Under the pieces are notes generated by a model, which worked only from the letters and a program-made list of their open reading frames with translations, had not been told where the DNA came from and searched no databases. Shown piece after piece: positions 10,558-63,276 of a stretch of DNA of 64,000 bases; positions within the stretch are counted from its first letter, which is position 1; each line of letters opens with the position of its first letter. A program made the translations under genes and the position numbers. Location: the IMG/VR virus record IMGVR_UViG_3300030688_000015, one strand, 5' to 3'. This DNA is from a virus.

Positions 10558-10590
10558 AGAACTCATTTTACAAATGAGTTCTTTTATTTA
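10558..10590 (+). terminator. Rho-independent terminator after the SSB gene
   Basis: Perfect 9-bp stem AGAACTCAT/ATGAGTTCT with 7-nt loop followed by TTTTATTTA. The track's ATG at 10574 lies inside the stem. Confidence 0.6.
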
Positions 10591-10609
10591 CAGTTTAGGA
10601 AGTAAAATA

Positions 10610-12814
10610 ATGATTAAAAAAATTAAAAAATCTGATGGCAGATTAGAAGACTTTGATCCTAATAAGCTCAACAAATGGGCTGAGTGGGCAGCTTTATATA
10701 AGAGAATAAGTTGGAGTAATATCACTTTGAAAGCTTATAGAGCTTGTTATGATAAGTGTTCAACTACAGATTTACATAAAGCTTTAATTACAGCTTGTAT
10801 AGAAGAGCAAGATGAAGACCATTTAAAAATGGCTGGAAGATTATTCATTAGTTCAATATACAAAGAGGTATATGGTGGCATAGATAAAATACCTTCTTTG
10901 ATTGACTTTTATAAGAAAATGGTAAAGCTAGATTTTTGGGTAAAAATGGACTACTCAGAAGAAGAACTTCATGCTATTGGGAAAATAATAGATCACAGTA
11001 AGGATATGACATACACTTATTCAGAATTAAAAGCTCTTAGAGATAAGAATATGATAGTGGATAAAACTGTAGATAAATGTTATGAGTCTCCTCAAATGAT
11101 GTACATTGGAGTTTCAATGGCTATCATGGAAAAAATGCCCAAGGAAAGAAGGATTAATGATATAATAGAATACTACAAACTTCTATCAGACAAAAAGTTA
11201 AATGCTCCAACTCCTTTTCTTTGTAATGCACGTACTAAGCACAGAGATTATGCCAGCTGTAACTTATACTCCACATTAGATACCTCACAGTCTTTAGCTG
11301 TTGGAGACCACATAGCATATTTAATGACCTGTGCTTCAGCTGGAATAGGTGCTCACTTAAAAACAAGATCCAAAGGGGATAAAGTAAGAAAAGGAACTAT
11401 TGAGCATCTAGGGAAAATTCCTTATTACAGATGCATAGAGTCTGCTGTCAGAGCTAATAAACAAAGCTCGAGAGGTGGCAGTGCTACAGTATATTATAAT
11501 GTTCTAGACCCAGAAGTTATGAGTTTATTAATGTTAAAGAGTATTGTTACTCCAGTTCAAGAGCAAGTAAGAGGATTAGACTATTCTTTCGGGTATAATA
11601 AAACTTTTGCTAGAAAAGTAGCGTTTAATGAAGATTGGATGCTTGTTTCTTATAAAGATGCTCCAGAATTACATGAGGCATTGTATTCAGATGATTTGCA
11701 AAATTTTGAAAAACTTTATGAAGAAGTTTTAAATAATAAAAATATTAAAAAAACTATTATTAAAGCAAGAGATATAGTTAAATTACAATTAGTTCAATCT
11801 TACGAAACTGGCAGAATATATTTACATGAAACTTATGAAATGAACCATCATACTCCTTTCAAAGAAAAAATCTACATGTCAAATTTATGTGTGGAGATTT
11901 GCCAACCCACTAAAGGTTTTAAAAATATGCAAGAGCTTTATTCTTCAGAATATGTAGAAGGGGAGATTAGTGTGTGTTCTCTCTCTGCAATAGTAGCAGG
12001 TAGAGTTAAACCAGAAGAGTACTACAATGTAGCTTATTATACTTTATTAGGCATAGATAATGTTATAGAATTAATGAACTATCCTTTTCCTAATCTTGAA
12101 ACTACTGCTAAAGCTAGAAGAAACGTAGGAGTAGGAATTACTAATTTAGCTTATGATTTAGCTAAAAGAGGTTTAACTTATAATTCAATTGAAGGTAAAA
12201 ACTACATTCATCAGCTAGCAGAGCTTCATAGCTATTCTTTAACTAAAGCTAGTTTGCAATTAGCTAAAGAAAGAGGAGTTTGTGATTGGATGCATAAAAC
12301 TAAGTATCCACAAGGTTGGTTACCTATTGATACATATAACAAAAATGTGGATAAAGTTCATACTCAAGAGTTATTATGTGATTGGGAATCTTTAAGAAAA
12401 GAAATAATAGAGAACGGAGGGATCCGTAATTCTGTATTAGAAGCTAATATGCCATGTGAATCATGTAATAAGTTTGATAATAAAATACAAACTGTAGACT
12501 ATGGTAACATTGATTTTCATGAAATTTGCGAAATTAATGGTATAGATTATAAAAAATTAGAATCTGAAGATACTCAAAAGTGGTTGGATTTAAAAAATCC
12601 TTTAAAAGTCTACACTAAAGAAGGAATTTTAGAGGCTGATAAACTGTACTACAATGGTAATTGTGAAGTTTTTGAAATAGAATTCGAAGATGGAAACATT
12701 TATTCTTTTACAGGGAATCATAAACTTTTAATCTCCATAGAAAATGAGGAAAAGTGGGTAAAAGTTTCTGAACTAACTGGTGATGAAGAGATACTTTGCT
12801 TAAATCATGAATAA
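10610..12814 (+). CDS. nrdA: Ribonucleotide reductase class I alpha subunit, N-terminal fragment fused to a split-intein N-part (IntN)
   Basis: ATP-cone (MIKKIKKSDGRLEDFD) and active-site NLCVEICQP (equivalent to E. coli NLCLEI). The frame follows NrdA up to ...RNSVLEANMPCES, then a Hint N-domain, then stop. The ATG at 10610 has an AGGAAG RBS. Confidence 0.8.
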   Translation: MIKKIKKSDGRLEDFDPNKLNKWAEWAALYKRISWSNITLKAYRACYDKCSTTDLHKALITACIEEQDEDHLKMAGRLFISSIYKEVYGGIDKIPSLIDFYKKMVKLDFWVKMDYSEEELHAIGKIIDHSKDMTYTYSELKALRDKNMIVDKTVDKCYESPQMMYIGVSMAIMEKMPKERRINDIIEYYKLLSDKKLNAPTPFLCNARTKHRDYASCNLYSTLDTSQSLAVGDHIAYLMTCASAGIGAHLKTRSKGDKVRKGTIEHLGKIPYYRCIESAVRANKQSSRGGSATVYYNVLDPEVMSLLMLKSIVTPVQEQVRGLDYSFGYNKTFARKVAFNEDWMLVSYKDAPELHEALYSDDLQNFEKLYEEVLNNKNIKKTIIKARDIVKLQLVQSYETGRIYLHETYEMNHHTPFKEKIYMSNLCVEICQPTKGFKNMQELYSSEYVEGEISVCSLSAIVAGRVKPEEYYNVAYYTLLGIDNVIELMNYPFPNLETTAKARRNVGVGITNLAYDLAKRGLTYNSIEGKNYIHQLAELHSYSLTKASLQLAKERGVCDWMHKTKYPQGWLPIDTYNKNVDKVHTQELLCDWESLRKEIIENGGIRNSVLEANMPCESCNKFDNKIQTVDYGNIDFHEICEINGIDYKKLESEDTQKWLDLKNPLKVYTKEGILEADKLYYNGNCEVFEIEFEDGNIYSFTGNHKLLISIENEEKWVKVSELTGDEEILCLNHE
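12464..12811 (+). other. IntN half of a naturally split intein (116 aa)
   Basis: CNKFDNKIQTVDYGNIDF (block A), GNCEVFEIEFEDGNIYSFTGNHKLL (block B TxxH), ...VSELTGDEEILCLNHE then a stop. Length and motifs parallel the DnaE split-intein N halves. Confidence 0.75.
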
Positions 12815-12863
12815 AAAAATTATAAAACAAATTTATAAAGAAATAAAAAAATTAGAAATAAGT

Positions 12864-12902
12864 GATTTAGAGGATTCTTTCTTTTTAGATTTTTCCTCTA
12901 AA
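12864..12902 (+). other. Perfect 10-bp stem-loop in the 147-bp spacer between the two nrdA halves
   Basis: ATTTAGAGGA ... 19 nt ... TCCTCTAAAT. Could be a terminator/attenuator or processing site. Confidence 0.4.
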
Positions 12903-12961
12903 TTAAATATAACTTTTTCTTCTCAAATAAATTTAAAAGTTAAATTAAAAGGCTGTAATTA

Positions 12962-13066
12962 ATGAAAATTAATAAAATAATAAAAAAAGATGCTGTACCT
13001 ACCTATGATATAAATGTTCCAGAGGTACATCATTATTTGATGGGAAATGGTATAATAAGCCATAAT
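12962..13066 (+). other. IntC half of split intein
   Basis: 35 aa with its own ATG and AAAGG RBS. Ends HN followed by Ser. Very close to the Npu DnaE IntC pattern (VYDIGVERDHNFALKNGFIASN vs TYDINVPEVHHYLMGNGIISHN). Confidence 0.75.
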
Positions 13067-13456
13067 TCTTCTGTAAATTCTAACACTACTAATGGTTTAT
13101 ATCCAGTTAGAGGAATTAAAATTTTAAAAGGTTCAGATAAAAACAAAACACTTTTCATTGCTCCTGAATCTGATAAACTAAAGTCTAATTACCAATTGGC
13201 TTGGGATTTAACTACTTTAGAAATGATTGATGTTTATTCTATAGTGCAGAAATTTACAGGACAATCCATATCTGCTGATTTTTACATTGATTATAATAAA
13301 TTACCTAATGGTAAAATTGATGACACTCAATTAGTTAAAGAATTTTTATACATGACTAAAATGGGAATGAAAACTAGGTATTACATTAACTCCAGAACAG
13401 ATGATGATACAGAACTTGAAAACGATGGTTGTGAAGGTGGAGTTTGCTCATTATGA
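12962..13456 (+). CDS. nrdA: Split-intein C-part (IntC, 35 aa) fused to the C-terminal fragment of RNR alpha subunit
   Basis: MKINKIIKKDAVPTYDINVPEVHHYLMGNGIISHN then S+1. The extein resumes SSVNSNTTNGLYPVRG, aligning with E. coli NrdA SETSSQISNATNGIEPPRG. C-terminal tail DDGCEGGVCSL is the NrdA CxxC thiol pair. Confidence 0.8.
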   Translation: MKINKIIKKDAVPTYDINVPEVHHYLMGNGIISHNSSVNSNTTNGLYPVRGIKILKGSDKNKTLFIAPESDKLKSNYQLAWDLTTLEMIDVYSIVQKFTGQSISADFYIDYNKLPNGKIDDTQLVKEFLYMTKMGMKTRYYINSRTDDDTELENDGCEGGVCSL

Positions 13457-14544: not shown

Positions 14545-14589
14545 TAATAAATATTACCTTTAAGATTCTTGTGAGAGTATAATATTGAA

Positions 14590-15120
14590 ATGAGTAAATT
14601 TATAGTAATTTTGTATTTTTTAAAGAATTTTTTTAAGAATGTTTCATATGATTTGAATCATATTTATATGGAATATTTTTTTATAATGTTTGTTTTAAAT
14701 AAACATATAGAGTCTAAAGTTTTCGAAGATACAATTTTTGATATTAATTTGCATGAATTGAAAACTAAGTTTCTTGAAGGCAATGTTTTAACAACCATCT
14801 ATTTTCCCTCTCAAGTTTCAATAGATGGTTGCTTTAAAAAATTATTAAAGAATTACAAAAAAAGAATAAAGACTAAAGATTCTTATGTTCTTAGTATTAC
14901 AGAGAAAAAATATAATAAACTTTATGAAAATTCTTCTTTATCTTTAAAAACTTTAGAAGAATTTGTAAAGGCTAGAGATTCTAAGAAAATACTAATAATT
15001 TCTAGAAAAGAAAAACACTTTTTTAAAGCTGTAGATTTTTCTAGGAAATTAAAATTAGAAACATCTATTCTTTCTAATGTTTTAATTGTAAACTTTAGCG
15101 GAATGAAAAATAAAATTTAA
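14590..15120 (+). CDS. hypothetical protein with hydrophobic N-terminus
   Basis: 176-aa ORF; no motif recognised. Confidence 0.45.
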   Translation: MSKFIVILYFLKNFFKNVSYDLNHIYMEYFFIMFVLNKHIESKVFEDTIFDINLHELKTKFLEGNVLTTIYFPSQVSIDGCFKKLLKNYKKRIKTKDSYVLSITEKKYNKLYENSSLSLKTLEEFVKARDSKKILIISRKEKHFFKAVDFSRKLKLETSILSNVLIVNFSGMKNKI

Positions 15121-26774: not shown

Positions 26775-27413
26775 TTATTTAACTCTTTTCAATTCTACTT
26801 TTTTATTTGTAACTGGGTGTAAAATTTCTTTAAACTTACAGCCTAAAGCACTGCTTGTTACATTTAAAAAATTAGAAGCTTCCTTAAGGCTTAAAAATTT
26901 CTCACCTGAGCTAAGTTTAATAACTTCAGCATTTCTAGAAATCTTTATTACTTTACCTGTGACAGGATGTTTTATTTCTTTTATTTTATTAAAAATTATA
27001 GAGGGATTATGTTTTAGAAATCTAGCAGCTTCATTCATGCTGTAAAATTTTTCTCCAGAACTAAGCTTAACTCCCACTATTTCTGAGTAGAAAGAATCTT
27101 TAATTTGATTTGGGTGAGATCCTGGTTTATCATAAAAAAGATTTTCAGCAACATTGCCTGCTTTGATATTTTTTCTATATAGAACTTGACCTTTTTTCAT
27201 TTTAGGTAAGAAGCAAGCTGCCACAACTCTAGCTAGATTAACCTTAACTGATTTACCATTACTGTTAGTAAGACTTAAATTATTTCCTTTGAAATTTCTA
27301 AAAGCATCACTTTTTTCCGAGAAAACTTGTCCTTTTTGAGAAACATAAATGCCTTTATAACCTTTAATTTGTTTAAAGATATCTCCATTTATTTTAATTT
27401 CTTTTTGACTCAT
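26775..27413 (-). CDS. free-standing HNH-family (NUMOD4/HNH_3-like) homing endonuclease-like protein with two NUMOD1 DNA-binding repeats
   Basis: N-terminal KGYKGIYVSQKGQVFS equals the NUMOD4 GYEGLYEVSNLGRV pattern. VKVNLARVVAACF...VAENLFY resembles the HNH_3 core, but the catalytic His position reads Y. Two C-terminal repeats ...SSGEKF(Y/L)S..EAA.FL... equal NUMOD1. Confidence 0.5.
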   Translation of the reverse strand: MSQKEIKINGDIFKQIKGYKGIYVSQKGQVFSEKSDAFRNFKGNNLSLTNSNGKSVKVNLARVVAACFLPKMKKGQVLYRKNIKAGNVAENLFYDKPGSHPNQIKDSFYSEIVGVKLSSGEKFYSMNEAARFLKHNPSIIFNKIKEIKHPVTGKVIKISRNAEVIKLSSGEKFLSLKEASNFLNVTSSALGCKFKEILHPVTNKKVELKRVK

Positions 27414-48401: not shown

Positions 48402-48568
48402 ATATTAAGCTTTACAAAAAACATTTTCATTTCCTTTCAAGTTAAGTAATAATTCCAATTTCATAACAATATTATACCACTAATTCTTCTTTACAAGTGA
48501 TATTTAAACTTAATATTTTGTTACTACCCAGAGGGTCTACTCCTAAAACACTGATTTTTAAGTCAGCA

Positions 48569-48832
48569 CTATATTATAAAATCATTTGGATTTATCAGTA
48601 CACGTCTAATGCTATCCAGTAAATCCAATCCTTGCTTTTTCATAGTCGAAATAAAACCACGTATTTTCACAAAATATTTAGCATATTGTGCATTTCTAAA
48701 ACATCCTGATATTTTCTGTCGCAGTTTTATCATCCGAATGTCTCTTTCGACTTGATTATTGGTAAATTCAAGCTTAAAATCATACATAAAACCTAGATAT
48801 TCTTTATATCGTTCATGTAATCTATTTAACAA
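48569..48832 (-). pseudogene. IS66 transposase C-terminal fragment
   Basis: See the mobile_element entry 48569..49600. Confidence 0.5.
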
Positions 48833-49600
48833 GGCTTCAAGTTGTCCCTGACGATTTTCATCAGTCAGCTCCTTTACTTGTGATTTCTACCAGCTTTCAA
48901 CACGTCAAACCATGCTTTTTTGTGCATAGAATGTACCCATTTACTTAAAGCATTAATACTTATTAATTTTGCATACTTCACATCAGCATGAATCTTATTT
49001 AATAGCTTATATAATTCATTAGCAAATTCAAGCTTATCATACTCTGACACAGCTTTTAATTCACGTAATAAATGTGCATTACATAACCCATGTATCGCAT
49101 TCGTACCAACAGTAAAACTCTTAAAGTTACTACGGTACAGTTACACAACCACAAGTACATTGACCATTATATATATATATATTATGGTTAACTATTACTT
49201 TTTTATTTCTACATCTTGCGTTTGTCTAGTTTCTATATACGAAAAATTAGATAATAATAACCCACAGCTACAACAAGATTATAATCAACCTCTGTATCCA
49301 CAACTTCACTGAACTTTAAATTACTTCCACTATGTCCAGATTGACTATTATCTGTTTTACCTCGTCCATTTGTGGTATTTCGCTTCTTACCTTCTACTTA
49401 ATTCATTAATTATCTCAGCTTGCTTAGAAATTATACCCATATACTCTTTATTTTGAGCTTCCAAAACTGATATACGCTTATCTTGTTCTATAATACGATA
49501 ACGCAAACTCTCATTCTCAGATAATGCCTTATTTAGCTTACCTTTAAGATTTACTATCTCTTTTAAAGCATAAAATAAATTTAATTAATAAAAACCTTAG
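48569..49600 (-). mobile_element. decayed IS66-family transposase (tnpC) remnant with frameshifts/stops
   Basis: C-terminal 87-aa ORF FTNNQVERDIRMIKLRQKISGCF. Upstream, in other frames, are HGLCNAHLLRELKAVSEYDKLEFA (IS66 CNAH zinc motif) and an N-terminal leucine-zipper segment. Locally higher GC. Confidence 0.55.
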
Positions 49601-50156
49601 ACCTTATTATCTCATTTGCTAGGGGCTGTGTAGTAACGATTAATCAACTTATTTTGATTTCATTGAAAATTCTAGTAAGTTGTTTTAATATATTTTATGA
49701 GCTTGTGAAGCTTGCCTAAATTGCACAAATCAGTCGTTTAATAAGGTGGATTATAAGTCACTGATTTAAAAGACTTATTAATTGTTATTGTATAAATCCT
49801 CGTTATTTTAATAAAGAGAGGTATCAAAACATCATTAAGATCACCACTGGTTTATTTAAGTTTACACTTGACTCCAGTGGTAGGATTAATTAGATAGATA
49901 AGGTCTTTAATAGATAACTTCTATCTAAAGCTTGTTATGTATTATGTAATAGAATCCTACTAACCAACATACTAAAATCACAACTACCACTTACTTGTTG
50001 TAATCCTATTAAGCTCCTTAGCTCTATGATTTGCATATAACTTAAGCCATATGATGTCTATAAGAGTGCATATAATGAAGGTTATAGAAAAACTTATTAC
50101 AGCAATCCATAAAAAATGTACAATATTCATAAGAGTTATCCTTCTTTAGTCTAGTG

Positions 50157-50860: not shown

Positions 50861-50945
50861 TTTTATTTCCTTTTACTTCTTAACATTACTAACAGTATTA
50901 TACCTTACAGCTTTAATCTAAAGTTATATTTTTTGAGTTATCCTT
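50861..50945 (-). promoter_or_regulatory. promoter/RBS unit (TATAAT) upstream of 50540..50860; about 70-bp near-identical copy at 51805..51875
   Basis: gctgtaaggTATAATactgttagtaatgttaagaagtaaaAGGAAAT; the second copy is about 90% identical. Confidence 0.45.
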
Positions 50946-51253: not shown

Positions 51254-51354
51254 ACTTACCTTCCTTAAATGTAAGAATCTATTTATTAATTTAAGTTATT
51301 ATTTTCATTTTACCAAGTAATAGATTATACTTTATTAAGTTAATCTTGAGTCAT

Positions 51355-52035
51355 ATTTTTTGAGTTATTACTTTAGTGGATGATCCATAAAAAATAATTT
51401 ATCAATTCTTTTATGTTATATTTTTTGTTTGATGTAGGTAAATTCACTTTAAATTTGTAAATTAACGTCTGTTTTAATCAAAATATACATTAAAATAATG
51501 GGAAAAACCTAGGGTAAGATTTCAATGGAAAATCTCTAATCCATGTAAACTATTGTTATTACTAGGTTTTTACTAATTCTAATTTTTGTCATTTTTCAGA
51601 AACTCGTGATTATAGAAAATCAAGATAATCACCCTCTTACAATTAATTCTCTTAAACTCCTACCTCTGGAAAGATTTTAGGAGAATTGCTTACATTTTCA
51701 ACTTGAGAAATAATGGGAAAAACCTAGGGTAAGATTCTAAATATCTCATTTTACTTTAGTGGATAATCCATAAAAATAAATTCAATGGATGATTCAATAT
51801 TTCCCTTTACTTCTTAACATTACTAACAATATTATACCTTATAGCTTTAATCTAAAGTTATATTTTTCAGTTATTACTTTACACTTCACCTTATAGATAT
51901 TAAAGTTATCTTTTAACTGTTTATACATAATATCTAAATAAACCCCCTTAAGGGGGGTTTATTTAGATAAATTTAATTCTCTTATTCAAGATAGTAAATG
52001 ATCCATAAAAATAAATTCAATGGATGATTCACGAA
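51355..52035. repeat. about 830-bp non-coding region with three interspersed repeat families
   Basis: aataatgggaaaaacctagggtaagatt occurs twice (51494, 51709). (a)gtggatgatccataaaaa(t)aaatt(caatggatgattca) occurs three times (51374, 51751, 51993). The 70-bp promoter-like repeat occurs at 51805..51875. Confidence 0.6.
51932..51968. terminator. bidirectional intrinsic terminator (near-perfect 36-bp palindrome)
   Basis: tctaaataaaCCCCCttaaGGGGGGtttatttaga: GC stem flanked by A-run and T-run on both sides. Confidence 0.6.
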
Positions 52036-52085
52036 AAATATTTTACCACTGATTGATGGCATTTATTTAGATCAATATTAAACTA

Positions 52086-55293: not shown

Positions 55294-55358
55294 TTCTATT
55301 CCTCAAAAATTTATTAGTAACAATATTATACTGCAGTTAAGATCCACTGAGTGATATT

Positions 55359-55841
55359 TTAATGTGCTAAAGTATATTTTCCATAAAATTTAGTTTTGTT
55401 TTTTAAAACTAACTCAAAAGTATTAAGTTTTTTCCAAGTAAATCTGTGCAAACTTTCCATAGGTTCTTTAAGTAACTCTACACACTTTAAAGATAAAGCT
55501 GCTGCAGCATGATCTTGAGATACATACCTTCCAACAAATTCCTGTCCATTGAAATTTACGAGTATGTCTTTGTCTATTAAATCTGGGACTCTAATTGGTT
55601 TCAGCTTAGATTCTTCTAAGATCTTTTTATCCATTTCAATTAATTCATCTCTTGAATTCAAAAGACCAGAAGATTCTATAGCTAGTTGAATTGGTGACTT
55701 CTCTTTCTGATTTTCTATAAACTTATTAATAACCTCAGTTATTTCTTCCTGAGTGCAATCTTCTTTGTATTTATCTCTAATTAGATCAGGTCTATTTCCT
55801 TCCGCTAATTCTCTAAATATTTTTTCTTGTGGTTGATTCAT
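55359..55841 (-). CDS. hypothetical protein
   Basis: 160-aa ORF. Confidence 0.45.
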   Translation of the reverse strand: MNQPQEKIFRELAEGNRPDLIRDKYKEDCTQEEITEVINKFIENQKEKSPIQLAIESSGLLNSRDELIEMDKKILEESKLKPIRVPDLIDKDILVNFNGQEFVGRYVSQDHAAAALSLKCVELLKEPMESLHRFTWKKLNTFELVLKNKTKFYGKYTLAH

Positions 55842-55882
55842 TAAATTTTTCCTTATGGTAAATTCACTAAAATTTTTACGGA

Positions 55883-56122
55883 TTATAAAATTTCTTTAAT
55901 ACTCTCTTGGTTATTAACTATAAATTTCAAAATATAGATTTCCTCTTCTTTTGATACACTAAGACCATAATCATTAACACGATCTAGTATAGGATAGATA
56001 ATTCCAGAACCTAAAGGTTCTTCCACAAAGCAAGTTTGTACAATTCTACCATCATGTAGAGTGATTATGAATCCGTTTATTTCTTGACTAAACTCGATTG
56101 TTTTAATTAATTTATCTTTCAT
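55883..56122 (-). CDS. small hypothetical protein, paralog of 61227..61571 (start trimmed to the cassette ATG)
   Basis: MKDKLIKTIEFSQEINGFIITLHDGRIV vs MINELIDSMEFSKDFRGYILKLYDGRKV. Confidence 0.5.
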   Translation of the reverse strand: MKDKLIKTIEFSQEINGFIITLHDGRIVQTCFVEEPLGSGIIYPILDRVNDYGLSVSKEEEIYILKFIVNNQESIKEIL

Positions 56123-56205
56123 TTCATTTCCTTTCAAGTTCTAAGTTGAACCACTCAACTCCATAACAATATTATACTACAATGGAATTCCATTGAGGGA
56201 TATTT
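56123..56205 (-). promoter_or_regulatory. conserved promoter/5'UTR cassette (copy 1): 16-bp palindrome CAATGGAATTCCATTG, -10 TATAAT, UTR hairpin AGTTGA/TCAACT, RBS AAAGGAAATGAAATG
   Basis: Reverse complement: aaaatatccctCAATGGAATTCCATTGtagTATAATattgttatggAGTTGAgtggTTCAACTtagaacttgAAAGGAAatgaaATG. Confidence 0.6.
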
Positions 56206-56211
56206 TAAAAG

Positions 56212-56673
56212 TTAATTTATCTTGTTGATGAACTTTATTATATAATAAAGTAAAATAAAGAATCCTAAAGGAGGACAAAGCAAACTGAAGATTATTAAAA
56301 GGAATCTTAATAAAAAGTAATAAAATTTATCAGGATCCATATTTATTTTAAAAGATTTTTCAGTTGTTTCGTGATCGTCTAATAATTTTTCCTGATAAAA
56401 TTTTGATTCTACAATTTCTTCATTTACATTAAAAATCTTCTGTCTTTCAAGTAAGTACTTCCAATAACATTCTGTTACAGCTTCAGACAAGAGGTTACCT
56501 TCAGATTGACCTTTCAAAGGCTGAAGTATTTTAGTGTAATTTCCTTTAGGATTATAAACTGCAATTGCACCTACCCCACCGTAATAACAATGAGCTTTGT
56601 TGCCTTCTACATACCCTATCATTTTCTGATCTGAATATATGTAATCTCTATCCATTTTATTCACCTTTGGCAT
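56212..56673 (-). CDS. hypothetical C-tail-anchored membrane protein, paralog of 57252..57776
   Basis: IGYVEGNKAHCYYGGVGAIAVY vs IGYVDGDKAYANCRGGGHVATY; both end with a TM helix. Confidence 0.5.
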   Translation of the reverse strand: MPKVNKMDRDYIYSDQKMIGYVEGNKAHCYYGGVGAIAVYNPKGNYTKILQPLKGQSEGNLLSEAVTECYWKYLLERQKIFNVNEEIVESKFYQEKLLDDHETTEKSFKINMDPDKFYYFLLRFLLIIFSLLCPPLGFFILLYYIIKFINKIN

Positions 56674-56677
56674 CCAC

Positions 56678-56947
56678 TTAGTTACACCATTTTGAGACTA
56701 ATAAGCCTGGATAAGTCCCACCACATTTATTACTTACCTCTGTGACAAAATCAAAATAATCTGTCATTATGTCTGAATTATTCTGAAACCCTGCTATCTC
56801 CTGAATTTTACCTGTCAAAGTAGATAAAAGTTCTCCTTCAGCTTCCAACTTTACAATTATCCATCTATTAGAAGTTACAGAACACTTAACTCCATTTTCT
56901 TTAGTTAAACTTTTAACTTTTCTCTTAAATTCTTGCAAGGTGATCAT
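56678..56947 (-). CDS. hypothetical protein
   Basis: 89-aa ORF. Confidence 0.4.
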   Translation of the reverse strand: MITLQEFKRKVKSLTKENGVKCSVTSNRWIIVKLEAEGELLSTLTGKIQEIAGFQNNSDIMTDYFDFVTEVSNKCGGTYPGLLVSKWCN

Positions 56948-57167
56948 TTGAATTCCTAACAGTTACATAAATAATTAAATAAATCTAGCATACTTGGACT
57001 AAGTTTTATTGCTACTGCTAGCATGGTTACATCAAACATAACCCACCAATTGATTTTCTTTTTCAAATGTTTCATGATTAATCCTCAATTGGAAAATATT
57101 TAGAATAAAATCCCACAGGACTAGTAATTTTAATTTTTCTTTTTGTGATTCTCTTATTGGTTTTCAT

Positions 57168-57250
57168 TTCATTTCCTTTCAAGTTCTAAGTTGAATAACT
57201 CAACTCCATAACAATATTATACTACAAAGGAATTCCATTTAGTAATATTA
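57168..57250 (-). promoter_or_regulatory. promoter/5'UTR cassette (copy 2) driving two tiny ORFs (29 and 39 aa; the latter a hydrophobic peptide) at about 56956..57167
   Basis: Same architecture; palindrome variant aaaGGAATTCCattt. Confidence 0.5.
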
Positions 57251-57251
57251 T

Positions 57252-57776
57252 TTAGTTATTTGATTTAGATAAATGGATAAAGAACTTAATTACACAGTAC
57301 CAAAATAAACCTACTCCAAAAGAATAAGGATAGATAAAAGATAGAATAATCACTATTAATAAAATAGTCATTTTTATCTTTTCAAATGTAGTAGCTTTAG
57401 AATTAGACTTAGAATTGGAAGAATATTTCTTTTCCAATTCTTTCATTTTAGATTTATATGCTTTCTCGTCTTTAATCTTTTTAGCTAGATCCTCCGCAGC
57501 TTTCCTCTTATCATCTTGAGCCTTATGAATATCTTCTTGCCATTTTTTAGCTTCCCTCTCAACATCTTGAGATTTATAGTAAGATGCAAATACAGCAGCC
57601 TGTAAGCAATTTCCTCTGTAGCTACCTCCAATATTTCCCATGTAGTCAGTACGATCCATGTTAGCGAAGTAAGTAGCTACATGACCTCCACCTCTACAAT
57701 TAGCATAAGCCTTATCTCCATCTACGTACCCAATACATTTTGCACCAATACATATATCATTTCTAGCCATAATCAA
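57252..57776 (-). CDS. hypothetical C-tail-anchored membrane protein, paralog of 56212..56673
   Basis: See 56212..56673. Confidence 0.5.
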   Translation of the reverse strand: MIMARNDICIGAKCIGYVDGDKAYANCRGGGHVATYFANMDRTDYMGNIGGSYRGNCLQAAVFASYYKSQDVEREAKKWQEDIHKAQDDKRKAAEDLAKKIKDEKAYKSKMKELEKKYSSNSKSNSKATTFEKIKMTILLIVIILSFIYPYSFGVGLFWYCVIKFFIHLSKSNN

Positions 57777-57793
57777 TTCTCCTTATAGTAATC

Positions 57794-58033
57794 CTAGTTG
57801 TGCCTAATTTCTACTGCTGCATAGCCTCCGTGATAATGGCTTCTGTATCCAAAAACTTCTGCGGGAATTCCTTCCTCAAGATACCTATTGACTATCTCTG
57901 AAGCTCTCATTCTTGTATGTATTTCAGCATTCAATATGTTCTCTTCTGTTAATTTAGTTTTTATAACTTTTTTATATCTGTAATTTCTAATATTAGGTTT
58001 CATTTCTTTTATTCTTGTACTTTTGTTTGACAA
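57794..58033 (-). CDS. hypothetical protein
   Basis: 79-aa ORF. Confidence 0.4.
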   Translation of the reverse strand: MSNKSTRIKEMKPNIRNYRYKKVIKTKLTEENILNAEIHTRMRASEIVNRYLEEGIPAEVFGYRSHYHGGYAAVEIRHN

Positions 58034-58605
58034 TTTTTAATAAGTTCAATGAGTTTTTCTTGATATTTCTTTCCTGAAGATTCCAACTCTTTATATAATT
58101 CTGAAACATCCCATTTTAAACCTTTCTCCTCAAGTCTATCTTTTACACTAGTCAAAATAGCAGAATATATTACGTTGCCTATTCTATTATCTCCACTATA
58201 AATAGCATTAGATGTACTAAAAACTTCAAATACTCCTTCAACGCCGTAAAGATATCCAAGTTTTCTTTTAACTTTCTTCTCCTCCTTTTCATTTTGGAAT
58301 TTAGTTTTAAGGTAGGAAATAGCTGCTTTAATCCCCTCTCTTTTTTCAGGAAGCACATTTAAATTTTCAAAAATATAACAAAGAAATGGTGCTTTAATCT
58401 TTTCTAAATCCATATTTGGTTTGCAATTAGACAATATTTCTTTAAATACAGGATTAGAATAATCTACTTTACCTTCATAAGTATAAAGAGTATATTTTAA
58501 ATCAAAAGTTTCTACAGCTCTAAGTAACCAAGAAGGTACATAACTTACATCTATCCCAACTTTTTCGTAACCAGATTTTCTAAATTCATCAACAAATTTT
58601 CCCAT
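58009..58605 (-). CDS. hypothetical protein (start trimmed to the cassette ATG, MGKFVDE...)
   Basis: The track ORF's first 14 aa (MKLRNFNLELKGNE) are translated from the UTR hairpin and RBS. Confidence 0.5.
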   Translation of the reverse strand: MGKFVDEFRKSGYEKVGIDVSYVPSWLLRAVETFDLKYTLYTYEGKVDYSNPVFKEILSNCKPNMDLEKIKAPFLCYIFENLNVLPEKREGIKAAISYLKTKFQNEKEEKKVKRKLGYLYGVEGVFEVFSTSNAIYSGDNRIGNVIYSAILTSVKDRLEEKGLKWDVSELYKELESSGKKYQEKLIELIKNCQTKVQE

Positions 58606-58690
58606 TTCATTTCCTTTCAATTCTAAGTTGAAATTCCTCAACTTCATAACAATATTATACTACAATGGAATTACATTGAGTGATATTGTT
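58606..58690 (-). promoter_or_regulatory. promoter/5'UTR cassette (copy 3)
   Basis: caatggaattacattg / tataat / aagttgaGGAATTtcaactt / aaggaaatgaaatg. Confidence 0.55.
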
Positions 58691-58699
58691 TAACTTTAT

Positions 58700-59311
58700 T
58701 TATGCTATGAGTAATTCTAATTCTGGAGGTAGTGATTCATCTAGATGCCTCTTAGCATTGATGAACATTTGTTTACAATTATCATAACCTAAGGTAGTTT
58801 CACTAATGTCTTCAACAAATTCACCTTCAGGGTCCATAACTTCACAAGAATATACTTCACCTCTAACATAAAAGTCATAGTTTTTAACTTCCATCTGTAA
58901 TACTTTGTGGGCTTTTTCTAAGATTTTCTTAGTTATTCTTTTACAACCATATTCTTTACGCAAATCATCTTTAGTTATGAAAACAAAACCAAGTTGTCCA
59001 GAATCAAATTTACATCCTCCAGTGCCTAAATAAATTGTAATCCCAGAATGTTCATACATTGATAGAGGTTCAATTATGGCTATATCTTGTAATTTTTGCA
59101 GTTCCTTAGAAACTTCATCCCAAGAGTTAAAATCTCTAATATCTAGAGAATCATTAATTATTTCATCACCTAGAGTATAATTTTTATGGTGACAATACAT
59201 CTTAGTTAGTTTATGCCAATTTCTTGGATTCATATACTCTTCTAAGTCTTCAGAGTGAGTTAGTATTATCTTGTGATTTTTATATTCCATAGACTCTAAT
59301 ATGTTGTACAT
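58700..59311 (-). CDS. hypothetical protein (start trimmed to the cassette ATG, MYNILES...)
   Basis: 203-aa ORF. Confidence 0.5.
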   Translation of the reverse strand: MYNILESMEYKNHKIILTHSEDLEEYMNPRNWHKLTKMYCHHKNYTLGDEIINDSLDIRDFNSWDEVSKELQKLQDIAIIEPLSMYEHSGITIYLGTGGCKFDSGQLGFVFITKDDLRKEYGCKRITKKILEKAHKVLQMEVKNYDFYVRGEVYSCEVMDPEGEFVEDISETTLGYDNCKQMFINAKRHLDESLPPELELLIA

Positions 59312-59395
59312 TTCATTTCCTTTCAATTATTAAGCTGAATAACTCAACTCCATAACAATATTATACTATAATGGAATTTCATTTAGGGATATTGT
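59312..59395 (-). promoter_or_regulatory. promoter/5'UTR cassette (copy 4); the hairpin has a compensatory variant AGTTGA/TCAGCT
   Basis: ataatggaatttcatttag / tataat / hairpin / aaggaaatgaaatg. Confidence 0.55.
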
Positions 59396-59421
59396 TTAAA
59401 TTTTCATTTTAAATCCTAAAA

Positions 59422-59697
59422 TTAGTTACTTTCTAAATCGCATTCAATCCATTCTCCGTGAGCGTAATAATGGGTGCTAATTATCTCTTCAATATAACCA
59501 TCTCTCCCCATATTATTACCAAAAATATCAACAAACTGGACGTTACGCTCAAAATCTCCAACTTTAATTGGTTTACTATCAGGACAAGGAAAACATTCAA
59601 TTGTACCTTCATTTAATGTTGAAGTTTTAACAGTATATAATACAGTATGATTTCCAGGATTTATAATTGGTTTTGTTGTTTTATTTAATTTTTTCAT
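59422..59697 (-). CDS. hypothetical protein
   Basis: 91-aa ORF. Confidence 0.45.
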   Translation of the reverse strand: MKKLNKTTKPIINPGNHTVLYTVKTSTLNEGTIECFPCPDSKPIKVGDFERNVQFVDIFGNNMGRDGYIEEIISTHYYAHGEWIECDLESN

Positions 59698-59812
59698 TTT
59701 TAACTTCTAAAAATTGTTATTAATTAGTTATTTTCTATTAATTCCTAAGTTGAACAACTCAACTCACTAACAATATTATACCATAATGGAATTTCATTGA
59801 GGAATATTTTAT
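59698..59812 (-). promoter_or_regulatory. promoter/5'UTR cassette (copy 5, variant with longer UTR and different RBS)
   Basis: ataatggaatttcattgag / tataat / gagttgttcaact hairpin retained. Confidence 0.45.
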
Positions 59813-59824
59813 AAGATTTTAAAA

Positions 59825-60325
59825 TCAGCCATACCATCTTTCAATATTAAACTCATCCTCCTCAACTTCATCTTTAAGCCTAGGATCGTATAGTTCACCT
59901 AAAAGCACGTATGTAGCAAATGAGTTTATAAATACCTCTCCATTCACACCAACCCAATCCATAGTAGACAGAGTTATTGTAGGTACTTTATTTTTGTAAT
60001 CAACATTTCTACTATCCCAAAGATTCTCATATGTGTCTTCGAAAAATAGATCATATTTACATCTTATACTTACTCTCACGTTTTCTAAGTCTAAAGCATT
60101 TACAATGTCTATAGCTTTGAGAGTATCATTCTCTGTAAATCCACTAGTTATTATTGAATAGATTTCTCCACCTAAGAAATCTCCTAAGAATTGGGCTTTC
60201 TCGTATCCAAAACACTTATATTTAGAATCGTAATCTCTTGGATATTGACTCATTACTATTTCTTCTAAATTTTTCCAATTAGATAACTCTCTCATAACAT
60301 CTAAGTTTATATCTGCTATTTCCAT
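59825..60325 (-). CDS. hypothetical protein (start trimmed to MEIADIN...)
   Basis: 167-aa ORF. Confidence 0.5.
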   Translation of the reverse strand: MEIADINLDVMRELSNWKNLEEIVMSQYPRDYDSKYKCFGYEKAQFLGDFLGGEIYSIITSGFTENDTLKAIDIVNALDLENVRVSIRCKYDLFFEDTYENLWDSRNVDYKNKVPTITLSTMDWVGVNGEVFINSFATYVLLGELYDPRLKDEVEEDEFNIERWYG

Positions 60326-60405
60326 GATTTCATTTCCTATCAATTATTAAGTTAAAACTCAAACCACTAACAATATAATACTTTAGTGGTTTGGGGATAT
60401 TGATT
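60326..60405 (-). promoter_or_regulatory. promoter/5'UTR cassette (copy 6, degenerate)
   Basis: RBS ggaaatgaaatcatg retained; -10 and palindrome diverged. Confidence 0.35.
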
Positions 60406-60435
60406 TCAAAAACTTATCATTTTTAATCCCAATGT

Positions 60436-60842
60436 TTAATCATCAAATTCTATGTCATTTGGGCTATAAGAATCACCATTTGTATCGTAGAATATTGTTG
60501 AAGGTAGAATCGCAAGTAGTCTTTCATAATCTTTGGCAAGAAATAAGTAAGTTCCTTGGTTTCTAAAATCATCAACATGTACATAAATTCTAAAAGACTC
60601 ATCATCTAAGTTTAGAGTTGCTTCTGCATTATTAACAGAAGGATGCACACCAAATAAAGTATTTTGAGTATCATAGTCTTCTTGATGCTCCTGGGGTACC
60701 ACTAATATACTTGTATTATACCAAAAGCTAGAAGGGTCTATACTCCAACCATCTGCGGCAAAATATTTTTGCCAATCTTTACCATTTATTGAAACCCCGA
60801 AACTTGGAAAGTCTTTAAAACTACATTTTCTTTTTTACTCAT
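60436..60842 (-). pseudogene. gene interrupted by a -1 frame change: cassette ATG gives MSKKENVVLKTFQVSGFQ-stop, and the rest continues in the -1 frame to 60436
   Basis: Frame change near the A6G run (agtAAAAAAGaa) 6 nt after the start. The downstream frame is open upstream to the cassette without its own ATG (the track uses a GTG at 60702). Confidence 0.4.
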
Positions 60843-60930
60843 TTCATTTCCTTTCAATTATTAATTAAGTTGAAATTCCTCAACTCACTAACGATATTAT
60901 ACTACAATAGAATTACACTGGGGAATATTC
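60843..60930 (-). promoter_or_regulatory. promoter/5'UTR cassette (copy 7); first minus-strand promoter next to the strand-switch
   Basis: caatagaattacactg / tataat (atcgttagtgag) / gagttgaGGAATTtcaact / aaggaaatgaaatg. Confidence 0.5.
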
Positions 60931-60997
60931 TTTTGCAAAAATTAAGTTATCTATTTCGAGAGCTCTACTTTAATTAAATATTTAAATATAATTTATT

Positions 60998-61075
60998 AAA
61001 GGAGTTTTAAAGAGGTTTAAATAAGTTTTAATAAAATCCTAACTAAATACCTTTAAACCTCTTTAAAGCTCCTTT
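60998..61075. repeat. large inverted repeat (about 24-bp arms, 22/24 match, 27-nt spacer) at the divergence point between the - and + transcription blocks
   Basis: AAAGGAGTTTTAAAGAGGTTTAAAT ... CTTTAAACCTCTTTAAAGCTCCTTT. Confidence 0.55.
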
Positions 61076-61226
61076 TTACTTTATTAATCCACATATTCTG
61101 ACTTATTCTGATTAAAACTCTCTTTCTGGTAAATTCAACACAGTAAATAAGTATTTAAATACCCCTCAGTAAAAATTAATTAATGTATAATTATGAACTG
61201 ATTCAAAATAATTAAAAGGAAATGAA

Positions 61227-61571
61227 GTGATAAATGAATTAATTGATTCAATGGAGTTTAGTAAAGACTTCAGAGGGTATATTTTAAAATTATATGATGG
61301 GCGTAAAGTATGCATAACTTTTGAGAGAGATTCAGATTCATACCCATATGGCTATTTTCCCCACTATTGTGCCCACCAGCCTGTAATTGAATCCATAAGT
61401 AATTACAACTTAAAAATTAGTCAAGCTGAAAAGGATAAAATTAATGATTTTTTATCATCAAATAAAGAAGTTATGGAAAAAGCTAATCTTTTAGATACTC
61501 TTTGGGAGGAATTTGAAGATACTGGAGGTGATTGGAATGAAACTCTAAGAAAAGAAGGATTTATTGTATAA
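61227..61571 (+). CDS. hypothetical protein, paralog of 55883..56122 (GTG start in AAGGAAATGAAGTG context)
   Basis: See 55883..56122. Confidence 0.5.
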   Translation: MINELIDSMEFSKDFRGYILKLYDGRKVCITFERDSDSYPYGYFPHYCAHQPVIESISNYNLKISQAEKDKINDFLSSNKEVMEKANLLDTLWEEFEDTGGDWNETLRKEGFIV

Positions 61572-61602
61572 GGAGCAACTAAGAAATAAATTATTAACTT
61601 TT

Positions 61603-61687
61603 AAAATATCACCTAATGTGATTCAATTATAATATAATATTGTTGTGGAGTTTGAGTTATTCAGCTTAATAATTGAAAGGAAATGAA
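61603..61687 (+). promoter_or_regulatory. promoter/5'UTR cassette (copy 8)
   Basis: aaaatatcacctaatgtgattcaattaTAATATAATattgttgtggagtttgagttattcagcttaataattgAAAGGAAATGAAATG. Confidence 0.5.
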
Positions 61688-61834
61688 ATGAGCTTACAAG
61701 AGATTAAAGAGTGTTTAACTTATTGGAAACTTACTAATACTTATAATGAGAATACAGACCTAATTGAGTTCTATGAAGAAAAGCAAAGCAGATTATTAGA
61801 TAGAGATACAGAAAATAAATTAAAATTATACTAA
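61688..61834 (+). CDS. small hypothetical protein (48 aa) not in the ORF track
   Basis: MSLQEIKECLTYWKLTNTYNENTDLIEFYEEKQSRLLDRDTENKLKLY; directly after cassette 8. Confidence 0.4.
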   Translation: MSLQEIKECLTYWKLTNTYNENTDLIEFYEEKQSRLLDRDTENKLKLY

Positions 61835-61835
61835 A

Positions 61836-61918
61836 GAATATTCCTCATTGTAATTCTATTGTAGTATAATATCGTTAGTGAGTTGAGGAATTTCAACTTA
61901 AAATTGAAAGGAAATGAA
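61836..61918 (+). promoter_or_regulatory. promoter/5'UTR cassette (copy 9)
   Basis: cattgtaattctattgtagTATAATatcgttagtgAGTTGAggaattTCAACTtaaaattgAAAGGAAATGAAATG. Confidence 0.55.
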
Positions 61919-62530
61919 ATGAGCAATGTAGACAATTCTATAAACTTACCATTTAGTGGCTTTTATAATACAGAATGGGAAGACCTAGTAACTTCATCAA
62001 TTGAATCTGCACGTGAGGTTGAAATAGGAGAAGACTATACTTTAGATGTGAGCTTGCTAAGTAAAGTGAATGGAATAAAAGTATATACAAATACTTCTAA
62101 AATTTTAGTGGATATGTTTAATCATTACATACAGGACGAAGTAAGCTTTGATAATCACGAGATTTTTAAAGATATTAAATTCAATTTTATTAAACTTAAA
62201 TCTCCGAAGTATTATAATTGGTCTAGTGATGAAATTGAAATGGCTTGTGATAATTTAGATTTATTGAAATCTCGTGTCTACCAATATATGCAAGATAATT
62301 TTGAAGAGTTTCAAAACTATATACAAGAAGAGTTCTCCAATAAGAGTGGTTTCTCAAGTTTTTATTCTAATTCTATACAAGATTCAGACTGGCAGCTTGA
62401 AAACTTAAAAAATATACAAATAAGTTATTTATTAAGTAAAATAATCCCCGAAGAGGAATTTTTAGAATACTGTATCAATAAGCAGTATTTGCATGAAAAA
62501 ATTCAACAAGAGATTGAACTAACTCCCTGA
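61919..62530 (+). CDS. hypothetical acidic protein (start trimmed to MSNVDNS...)
   Basis: 204-aa ORF. Confidence 0.5.
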   Translation: MSNVDNSINLPFSGFYNTEWEDLVTSSIESAREVEIGEDYTLDVSLLSKVNGIKVYTNTSKILVDMFNHYIQDEVSFDNHEIFKDIKFNFIKLKSPKYYNWSSDEIEMACDNLDLLKSRVYQYMQDNFEEFQNYIQEEFSNKSGFSSFYSNSIQDSDWQLENLKNIQISYLLSKIIPEEEFLEYCINKQYLHEKIQQEIELTP

Positions 62531-62769
62531 TACTTGAGAACTTATATCAACTATTATACTAAGGAAAATTATGCATTACTATTATGAGTTTTATTATTTT
62601 TTATGTGATACTATAGGTGTGTTTTTAAGCAAACATTTACTTGCAGCAGGTATCTTCCTCGTTTTTTGTTTCATAGCAACTTTTATAGGCATGTTTTGTG
62701 CAGTTGAAAACATCAAAATTTAATATCTTATAAAGTTATTAACAAATTTTTAAAAAGGAGTTTCAGTAG

Positions 62770-63171
62770 ATGAACTTGTTTAAATACTTATTTAATCCAC
62801 ACCTGAGAAAATTTAACAGAGATTTCATTTATCTTAAGAATCTAGATGAATCTGGTATTTTTGCACAAACTTTAACTAATACTGTTATAGATAAACTTAA
62901 AGAATTAGAGTTTACTCTAACCTTATCTTACTTAGAAGCAGGTGAAGAAACATCCTACTTAGAACATACTAAGTACAAAGGATTAAAAGTTAAGATATCC
63001 AGATCTATTGCTTTCAATCACCACCCATATTATATTTTATATGTTACTTATATGTCTAGAAGATCTTTTACTCAAGATTTAAGATCAGAAAAAGACATAA
63101 CCAGATTTAGTAAAATAATAAAAAATTTTCTCAATTACTTAGATGAAGAGAAATCTGAAAAGAGGAGTTGA
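62770..63171 (+). CDS. hypothetical protein
   Basis: 133 aa with AAGGAG RBS. Confidence 0.5.
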   Translation: MNLFKYLFNPHLRKFNRDFIYLKNLDESGIFAQTLTNTVIDKLKELEFTLTLSYLEAGEETSYLEHTKYKGLKVKISRSIAFNHHPYYILYVTYMSRRSFTQDLRSEKDITRFSKIIKNFLNYLDEEKSEKRS

Positions 63172-63191
63172 GACTCTAAAATCAACAAATA

Positions 63192-63276
63192 AAAAATATC
63201 ACCTAATGGAATTCTACTAAAGTATAATATTGTTATGGAGTTGAGTTGTTCAACTTAAGAATTGAAAGGAAGTGAA
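63192..63276 (+). promoter_or_regulatory. promoter/5'UTR cassette (copy 10)
   Basis: aaaatatcacctaATGGAATTCtactaaagTATAATattgttatggAGTTGAgttgTTCAACTtaagaattgAAAGGAAGTGAAATG. Confidence 0.55.

Follow-up and report, generated by a model that had tools for sequence, protein, structure and literature searches.

The window analyzed here, a 64,000-nt stretch of one strand of the IMG/VR virus record IMGVR_UViG_3300030688_000015, comes from a large uncultured phage of 28% G+C content and carries, on both sides of its last divergent strand switch, a family of promoter-leader cassettes that head a block of small genes (initially noted at 55,294 to 63,276). Each of these cassettes is probably a self-contained expression signal that doubles as portable homology. 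This reading builds on direct observations, i.e., the repeat family itself, the statistics of its promoter class, the fold of a leader hairpin, and structural variation bounded by cassettes. In the mechanism that we propose, a bipartite promoter would combine a perfect TATAAT, extended to TATAATATTGTTA, with an AATATyhCy box located exactly 23 nt upstream of it, and this canonical -10 element points to a holoenzyme of the sigma-70/sigma-A type. Transcription would start approximately 7 nt past the -10 element, the leader hairpin would most likely protect the 5' end of the mRNA, and an unpaired extended Shine-Dalgarno (SD) sequence, GAAAGGA, would give strong translation. Homologous recombination between copies, presumably by the UvsX-like recombinase and the SbcCD/gp46-47-like nuclease of the phage, would insert, delete, and exchange modules of one cassette plus open reading frame (ORF) and would also homogenize the cassettes.

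A repeated unit within a wider promoter class

The window contains 10 full cassettes (7 on the minus strand at 56.1 to 60.9 kb and 3 on the plus strand at 61.6 to 63.3 kb), numbered C1 to C10, plus one promoter-only copy (C0) and one degenerate copy. Three more (C11 to C13) lie within 5.3 kb past the window end on an identical metagenome contig, and a variant has further copies beyond these. A repeat search detected 6 to 8 direct copies on the minus strand and inverted matches of 82 to 112 nt (75% to 87% identity) to the three plus-strand copies, while a profile hidden Markov model (HMM) trained on eight copies retrieved ten copies from the window at E values of 1e-9 to 1e-26 in addition to the promoter-only copy. 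Both methods agree on the location of the family given in the first-pass annotation of this DNA, whose strand tally of seven and three was correct and whose consensus was reproduced almost to the letter by a MAFFT alignment of 11 copies. Its description of near-identical copies of about 85 bp stands with regard to the family but was overstated as to likeness, since the copies are only 75% to 90% alike.

Each unit of about 85 bp is composed, in this order, of the AATATyhCy box, a 16-bp palindrome-like spacer, TAG, TATAATATTGTTA, a 7- to 9-bp hairpin, the unpaired GAAAGGA Shine-Dalgarno sequence, and ATG. With all copies anchored on TATAAT, the unit begins sharply at the AATAT box, upstream of which there is no conservation, and ends at the start codon. 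The blocks AATAT, TATAATAT.GTT, TTGAG, and SD-ATG are invariant while spacer, loop, and linker vary, and the end of the unit (GAAAGGAAATGAAATG, comprising SD and start codon) is found exactly in 8 window cassettes and in gene orientation only. The earlier view of the units as promoter-leader modules that head a hyperplastic block of small genes on both sides of the strand switch is supported; the modules include the ribosome-binding site, and the genes are ORFans.

The cassettes belong to a wider class of promoters. We found 20 exact sites of the pattern AATATNNC-N20-TATAAT in the window compared to 0.07 expected, each located between genes and in the orientation of the gene that follows, and 17 sites of the extended -10 element TATAATATTGTTA with at most one mismatch compared to 1.38 expected, which excludes a chance origin. 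Half of the 20 sites are cassettes, while the other ten head other genes, including genes of nucleotide metabolism and replication, and have unrelated, non-palindromic spacers and no leader hairpin. An example is the site at 48471..48504 on the minus strand, with AATAT box, 23-nt distance, and TATAAT; the others are located at 7939, 14550 (plus strand) and 25415, 27459, 38748, 40685, 50897, 51324, and 51831 (minus strand). Given that the AATAT box and the extended -10 element are common to all 20 sites, ten of which lack both palindrome and hairpin, these two elements seem to be the promoter proper, and the palindrome, the hairpin, and the optimal SD can be taken to define a subclass.

The AATATnnC box is placed at about -40 to -33, approximately 3 to 6 bp farther upstream than a normal -35 element, and does not resemble TTGACA. 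A standard sigma-70 scan found no -35 element with at least 4/6 matches at 16 to 18 bp from any cassette -10 element, in line with the earlier impression that none was obvious. However, the proposal that the palindrome takes the place of the -35 element in the manner of a MotA box is not supported as stated: The element shared by all 20 promoters at a fixed spacing of 23 nt is the AATATnnC box, which had been overlooked, and the spacer is not palindromic in ten promoters of the class as well as in C11 of the window phage. The palindrome thus appears to be an accessory element, given that ten members of the class do without it and without the hairpin. Judged by their sequence, the cassettes very likely have promoter activity.

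A different account of these promoters, which we hold to be somewhat unlikely, is that they are of a middle type, with the AATAT box bound by a phage activator or sigma-appropriation factor following MotA/AsiA-like logic and with firing after an immediate-early class located elsewhere. The unusual box at its non-canonical distance would fit this idea, as would the presence of the class upstream of nucleotide-metabolism and replication genes. Another fitting feature is that the bipartite motif is found neither in unrelated phages of the same G+C content (28%) from similar samples nor in the loci of distant protein relatives, which argues that it is lineage-specific rather than a general host promoter type. 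However, no MotA/AsiA-like family or sigma factor was detected among the 70 window proteins scanned (Pfam and/or PHROGs), and a perfect TATAAT with the conserved flanking G and ATTGTTA could suffice. Moreover, no alternative canonical promoter class is visible at 54 to 64 kb, where sigma-70-type matches number 62 compared to a shuffled expectation of 59. Strong early promoters of phages that host polymerase recognizes alone often have a phage-specific extended consensus, the T4 early promoters being an example. Early timing of the cassette promoters is plausible. A Bacteroidetes-type -33/-7 promoter was also considered and rejected, as its spacing does not match and the cassettes have a strong SD.

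Two wider-class loci have peculiarities of their own. At 14550-14592 on the plus strand, the extended -10 element of an AATAT-box promoter runs into the ATG of ORF 14590-15120 (TATAATATTGAAATG), suggesting a leaderless or near-leaderless mRNA. On the minus strand, a non-coding stretch of 830 bp at 51254-52085 has two AATAT-box promoters, with a third one just downstream at 50897-50930, and contains a G+C-rich terminator-like hairpin (AAACCCCCCTTAAGGGGGTTT) together with 3 to 4 copies of a unit of about 40 nt (..ATCCATTGAATTTATTTTTATGGAT..). These may be small RNA genes or iterons; positions 51796-51992 are missing in variants.

Gene shuffling at the cassettes

Variants of the same lineage with 92% to 97% identity were found via a homologue of NAMPT (L015) and via members of the 90% clusters of block proteins (L017 and L019). 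We compared them over the region of 55 to 69 kb with the window, extended by contig L001, as reference and observed 14 structural events (insertions, deletions, and replacements), of which 13 have an end in a cassette. Altogether, 20 of 26 breakpoints are located in cassettes compared to 11% expected from the share of cassettes plus a 10-bp margin in the region (P about 1e-14), though this enrichment overstates the mechanistic preference and may in part reflect selection, since whole-gene insertions and deletions survive only in intergenic DNA, which here is mostly cassette.

Relative to this reference, genes are inserted at C0 (125 amino acids [aa]), at C1 (a PcfJ-like gene of 387 aa, plus a 59-aa gene in L017), at C2 (65 and 137 aa), at C9 (three genes), and at C11 (64 aa). 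Others are lost, i.e., the 91-aa gene between C4 and C5, a frameshifted gene between C6 and C7, and the gene between C12 and C13, while different genes stand behind C9 in L017 and behind C10 in L015. One deletion has one end at the -10 core of C3 and the other inside a gene, and the single event without a link to a cassette is a 625-bp deletion in NAMPT. The inserted genes (PcfJ-like 387 aa and the ORFs of 125, 65, 137, and 64 aa) each bring their own cassette. Gains, losses, and swaps of genes thus begin and end in cassettes, and the suggestion that they shuffle genes like the promoter-early stem-loop (PeSL) cassettes of T4-type phages (Arbiol et al. 2010, PMC2839356; Comeau et al. 2014, PMC4122927) is upheld.

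The junctions themselves are informative as to mechanism. L015 has a hybrid cassette composed of the upstream half of C12, TATAATATTGTTA, and the downstream half of C13; the crossover lies within TATAATATTGTTA, and the gene that separates C12 from C13 is gone. C11 has one upstream half in the window phage and another in L015, the C10 junction in L015 lies ten bases into the ORF, and mosaic cassettes are found on orthologous genes. Crossover points vary between the AATAT box, the -10 core, the SD, and the first codons, suggesting homologous exchange with gene conversion rather than site-specific recombination. The hybrid cassettes are independent of the selective effect described above and argue against selection as the whole story. 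We therefore regard the cassettes' role as recombination modules as well supported.

These junctions also bear on whether the repeats could be a mere by-product instead of a regulatory family, arising from a recent tandem duplication or through the activity of a site-specific or transposable element (integron-like or resembling miniature inverted-repeat transposable elements). The several paralogue pairs in the block and the sharp boundaries of the units from AATAT box to start codon would be compatible with such an origin, but most genes downstream of the cassettes are unrelated to each other, and copies occur on both strands and are always co-oriented with the gene. Site-specific exchange would not account for crossovers at varied points of the cassette. 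In addition, there is no integrase or transposase beside the block, the sole transposase being a decayed IS66 remnant 7 kb away, and the units have neither terminal inverted repeats nor target duplications. We thus find a by-product scarcely credible.

The NAMPT locus lies past the window end (L001 2194-3418, about 66.0 to 67.1 kb) and encodes 286 aa in the window lineage with its 625-bp deletion compared to an intact 497 aa in L015. An unrelated phage with 52 kb and 28% G+C (L011-L014) has a NAMPT of 85% identity, suggesting that co-occurring phages have exchanged genes.

The palindromic spacer and the leader hairpin

The 16-mer between AATAT box and -10 element is, as initially described, a perfect palindrome in C1 only (8/8 complementary pairs) and a variant of it in the other copies (5-7/8). 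It is possible rather than probable that this element, which is centered near -23.5, binds a dimeric regulator of phage or host and makes the block an operator-controlled regulon, either through a repressor that silences the accessory genes jointly or through a MerR-like activator acting on the over-long spacer; this could hold alongside the dual role proposed above. The consensus spacer CAATGGAATTCCATTG is palindromic, its location matches the place where repressors and MerR-type activators bind, and the cassette spacers average 6.0/8 complementary pairs compared to 2.96/8 in the rest of the promoter class. Conservation is also mirror-symmetric between the two halves (positions 2, 4, 7, and 8 are high in both and 1, 3, and 6 low), and a hairpin of RNA or DNA would be too weak in most copies for a structural role (0 to -2.6 kcal/mol; -5.4 kcal/mol for C1).

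Against an operator speaks that just one copy is perfect and that no other block of the promoter varies as much as the palindrome, with orthologous copies differing at several positions. The pairing does not exceed what column composition predicts (6.0 observed compared to 5.85 shuffled, P 0.23; 18 distinct cassette spacers from four genomes), and at C11 the palindrome is present in L015 and missing from the window phage. Furthermore, the site does not occur on its own anywhere else in the window, and a scan of 40 proteins encoded nearby detected no DNA-binding domain. The 114-aa product of the first plus-strand gene, considered as candidate regulator, gave an AlphaFold model with a pLDDT (predicted local distance difference test) of 67 and no Foldseek match at E below 0.001. 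The symmetry of the spacer could also be explained by common descent plus gene conversion. Palindromes of the CRP, Fur, or CodY type were considered as well, with no convincing match.

Very unlikely, in our view, is that the palindrome is the stem-loop of a promoter-terminator of the PeSL type that blocks read-through from the upstream gene. PeSLs do pair a short stem-loop with an early promoter (PMC4122927), and the comparatively stable palindrome of C1 is followed by U-rich sequence. However, the weak folding of most copies makes a hairpin or terminator role unlikely, the element is located inside the promoter and not upstream of it, and a terminator scan of the region returned 2 sites compared to 3.4 expected, none of them at cassettes. 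A bolder combination, with two new regulatory elements, would have the lineage-specific AATATnnC box read by a new phage factor that retargets polymerase while the symmetric spacer operator switches a mobile accessory set. We consider this unlikely; if true, any gene captured by a cassette would automatically join a timed regulon.

With transcription assumed to start approximately 7 nt after the -10 element, the leader comprises about 45 nt, of which nt ~3 to ~25 fold into a hairpin of 7 to 9 bp (-6 to -8 kcal/mol; z of -2 to -4 in most copies). The hairpin that the first-pass annotation placed in the untranslated region is thus real; it begins 3 to 4 nt past the predicted +1 and leaves the extended SD (GAAAGGA, 8 nt before the ATG) unpaired. 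C12 and C13 have hairpins of different sequence at this position, the stem is constant whereas the loop varies, and the G.U pairs of the hairpin form only in sense RNA, which together are weakly suggestive of a role as RNA. Across 25 distinct leaders, the outer five pairs are formed in 92% of cells. Stem-loops close to the 5' end stabilize mRNAs against RNase E or RNase J, and by analogy we prefer to read the leader hairpin as a stabilizer of this kind, which is plausible.

Several observations weigh against the interpretation of the cassettes given here, beyond the selective effect on breakpoints. In the 25 leaders, the hairpin is conserved by sequence, with no double changes and no compensatory covariation in register that would reveal selection at the level of structure; RNAalifold gave no consensus structure for them, and a few copies have lost the hairpin. 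Finally, all comparisons are limited to variants of 92% to 97% identity, and searches by DNA, pattern, and protein found no cassette carriers more distant than these.

Known systems, block genes, and phage context

Like PeSLs, the window cassettes are short repeated units of promoter, Shine-Dalgarno sequence, and start codon (PMC2839356, PMC4122927) that are concentrated in hyperplastic regions of small ORFans differing between close relatives. In both cases, indels and replacements have their junctions in the units, and the shuffling is explained by recombination from one unit to another, here with hybrid units in the form of C12/C13 and the half-swap at C11. Excised mini-circles that carry a single unit together with one or more genes are a further trait of PeSLs. 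However, PeSLs have a sigma-70-like promoter with -35 and -10 elements about 17 bp apart and a terminator stem-loop just upstream of it, whereas the window cassettes have no -35 element but an AATAT box fixed at 23 nt from the -10 element and no such terminator but a stable hairpin downstream in the 5' leader. The palindrome-like spacer inside the promoter is likewise a feature of the window cassettes and not of PeSLs. We therefore call the cassettes PeSL-like rather than PeSLs, as we looked for both the -35/-10 promoter and the upstream terminator stem-loop and found neither. The different architecture (non-canonical upstream box, palindromic spacer, and leader hairpin compared to -35 element and terminator) suggests convergent evolution, and the cassettes would extend the PeSL principle, by which a repeated cassette expresses accessory genes and supplies homology for their shuffling, to outside the cultured T4-type phages, with the shuffling directly visible in natural metagenome populations.

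The host-takeover module of phage SPO1 (Stewart et al. 1998, as described in PMC6873191) is similar as a cluster of about 12 kb whose approximately 25 small early genes are divided among many short operons with high-expression promoters and ribosome-binding sites, most products lacking known relatives; early timing is plausible for the window block. In contrast, the parts of that description available to us mention no repeated leader cassette, and the SPO1 module lies in the terminal redundancy. Its products are, according to the same description, shown to shut off the host, whereas host-takeover or anti-defence roles of the genes in the window block are conjecture.

MotA-dependent middle promoters of T4 and the PmSL variants of vibriophage nt-1 (PMC4122927) also combine a good -10 element with an upstream box that is not of the sigma-70 type in place of the -35 element. 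Their Mot box, described as lying "at the appropriate distance" (PMC4122927), has a TGCTT core and is closer to the -10 element than the AATATnnC box of the window cassettes at about -40 to -33, and no TGCTT is present in the cassette spacers. With the class of 20 sites, transcription units of this phage lineage could readily be annotated, and the cassette could serve as a compact expression part for AT-rich hosts. The Mot box is centered at about -30, approximately 12 bp upstream of the -10 element. Temperate phages have repeated operators, such as the C1 operators of P1 and the stoperators of cluster A mycobacteriophages, which resemble the palindromic spacers as many copies of one short site across intergenic regions through which one regulator governs many units. 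Unlike these spacers, however, they are asymmetric, do not belong to a repeated unit of promoter, leader, and ribosome-binding site, and are bound by known repressors, whereas binding is hypothetical here. Integron-like cassettes differ in having one fixed recombination point and an adjacent integrase, compared to several crossover positions and no integrase in the window block.

On the minus strand, C1 (56120..56204; E 4.6e-26) combines the AATAT box, the perfect palindrome CAATGGAATTCCATTG, TATAATATTGTTA, hairpin, SD, and the ATG of a 79-aa ORF that is followed by a 160-aa ORF. C2 (57165..57249) heads ORFs of 29, 39, 89, and 153 aa, C3 (58603..58687) ORFs of 198, 79, and 174 aa, and C4 (59309..59393) a 203-aa ORF, with a U.G wobble in its hairpin that is paired in sense RNA only. 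C5 (59695..59808; E 3e-16) keeps promoter and hairpin but has a longer leader of other sequence before a 91-aa ORF, while C6 (60323..60401; E 3e-9) is degenerate with a 7-bp spacer deletion, TATTAT as -10 element, and a weak hairpin, heading a 166-aa ORF. C7 (60840..60929) is the first unit of the minus-strand arm. The promoter-only C0 (55291..55358; HMM match 55316-55362, E 1.4e-5), also on the minus strand, has the AATAT box, a degenerate palindrome, the -10 core, and a different, short leader, and heads a conserved 308-aa gene. On the plus strand, C8 (61605..61690) heads a 48-aa ORF, C9 (61837..61921) ORFs of 203, 50, and 133 aa, and C10 (63195..63279), the left edge of the gene replacement in L015, a 65-aa ORF and downstream genes. 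A degenerate promoter with SD at 61157..61229 (AAATACCCC...TATAAT...AAAAGGAAATGAAGTG) precedes the first plus-strand gene (114 aa).

The gene behind C7 (60436-60842, minus strand) is frameshifted right after ATG AGT AAA AAA at an A-run, with the other frame open for about 135 aa. It has the same sequence in the four identical contigs covering this segment (L001, L002, L004, and L005), and 60388-60841 is missing from L017 and L019; this could be a decaying gene or a slippage site. The divergent intergenic region of 220 bp between the two arms (60937..61156) holds a conserved hairpin at 60997-61078 with a 24-bp stem (-30.5 kcal/mol, z -6.8). In L017 and L019 the stem is kept while the loop is variable, and a T-run follows on the plus strand; the structure may function as an origin, small RNA, or terminator.

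In total, about 25 ORFs of 29 to 215 aa lie behind 11 promoters at 55.3 to 64 kb. Proteins driven by cassettes have no Pfam match, and their PHROG matches are to families of unknown function only. The paralogue pairs that had been noticed earlier among the block genes were confirmed as four pairs with 26% to 36% identity, some of them split between the two arms or between the block and 43 to 46 kb; the 114-aa first plus-strand gene is a paralogue of the C1-driven 79-aa gene.

Up to 22.5 kb, the ORFs of the window are on the plus strand; from there to 60.9 kb they are on the minus strand, and beyond 61.2 kb once more on the plus strand. Besides UvsX-like recombinase and SbcCD/gp46-47-like nuclease, they encode primase, class I ribonucleotide reductase, thymidylate synthase, NAD ligase, RNA ligase, RtcB, tRNA nucleotidyltransferase, and GroEL, while Rfam and tRNA scans of the window returned nothing. 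The block has no nucleotide match by megablast among 50,697 phage records, and the closest SbcC match is 26% identical. The phage has no close cultured relative, and its membership among T4-type phages is unproven. Many metagenome assemblies hold contigs identical to the window over the regions retrieved. A scan of IMG/VR with two cassette patterns gave 0 hits, and the sole find of a metagenome scan for the cassette pattern was a 97% variant of the same phage.

Protein searches gave a similar picture. The conserved 308-aa protein used as an anchor has no relatives in IMG/VR or in a set of 5.8 billion proteins, and NAMPT homologues were found at 85% and 66% identity in unrelated phages that have no cassettes, though the same search led to variant L015. 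For a 386-aa protein, relatives in IMG/VR include phiCD211-like phages of C. difficile (L102), and the motif is present in 0/16 loci; another relative (L101) gave no phage match. Homologues of the C4-driven 203-aa protein are located in unrelated phages. One of these (L006 1-5321, 49% identity), which also has tRNA-like sequences, repeats a motif of its own (TCCTTTTTTTTATTTTCATGCCATATAA) in front of almost all small genes and seems to have arrived independently at the arrangement of one repeated promoter for each small gene.

Elsewhere in the window, the decayed remnant of the IS66-family transposase (48520-49640) is missing from variant L017. Host assignment via this remnant was dropped since its best genome matches, in metagenome-assembled genomes of Burkholderiales and Pseudomonadota, reach only 69% and are too weak to use. 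ORFs of HNH endonucleases are found at 26775-27413 and 34478-35671. The large subunit of ribonucleotide reductase (10574-13456, plus strand) is split into ORFs of 746 and 164 aa with a small ORF between them, which may be an interruption by an intein or a mobile element.

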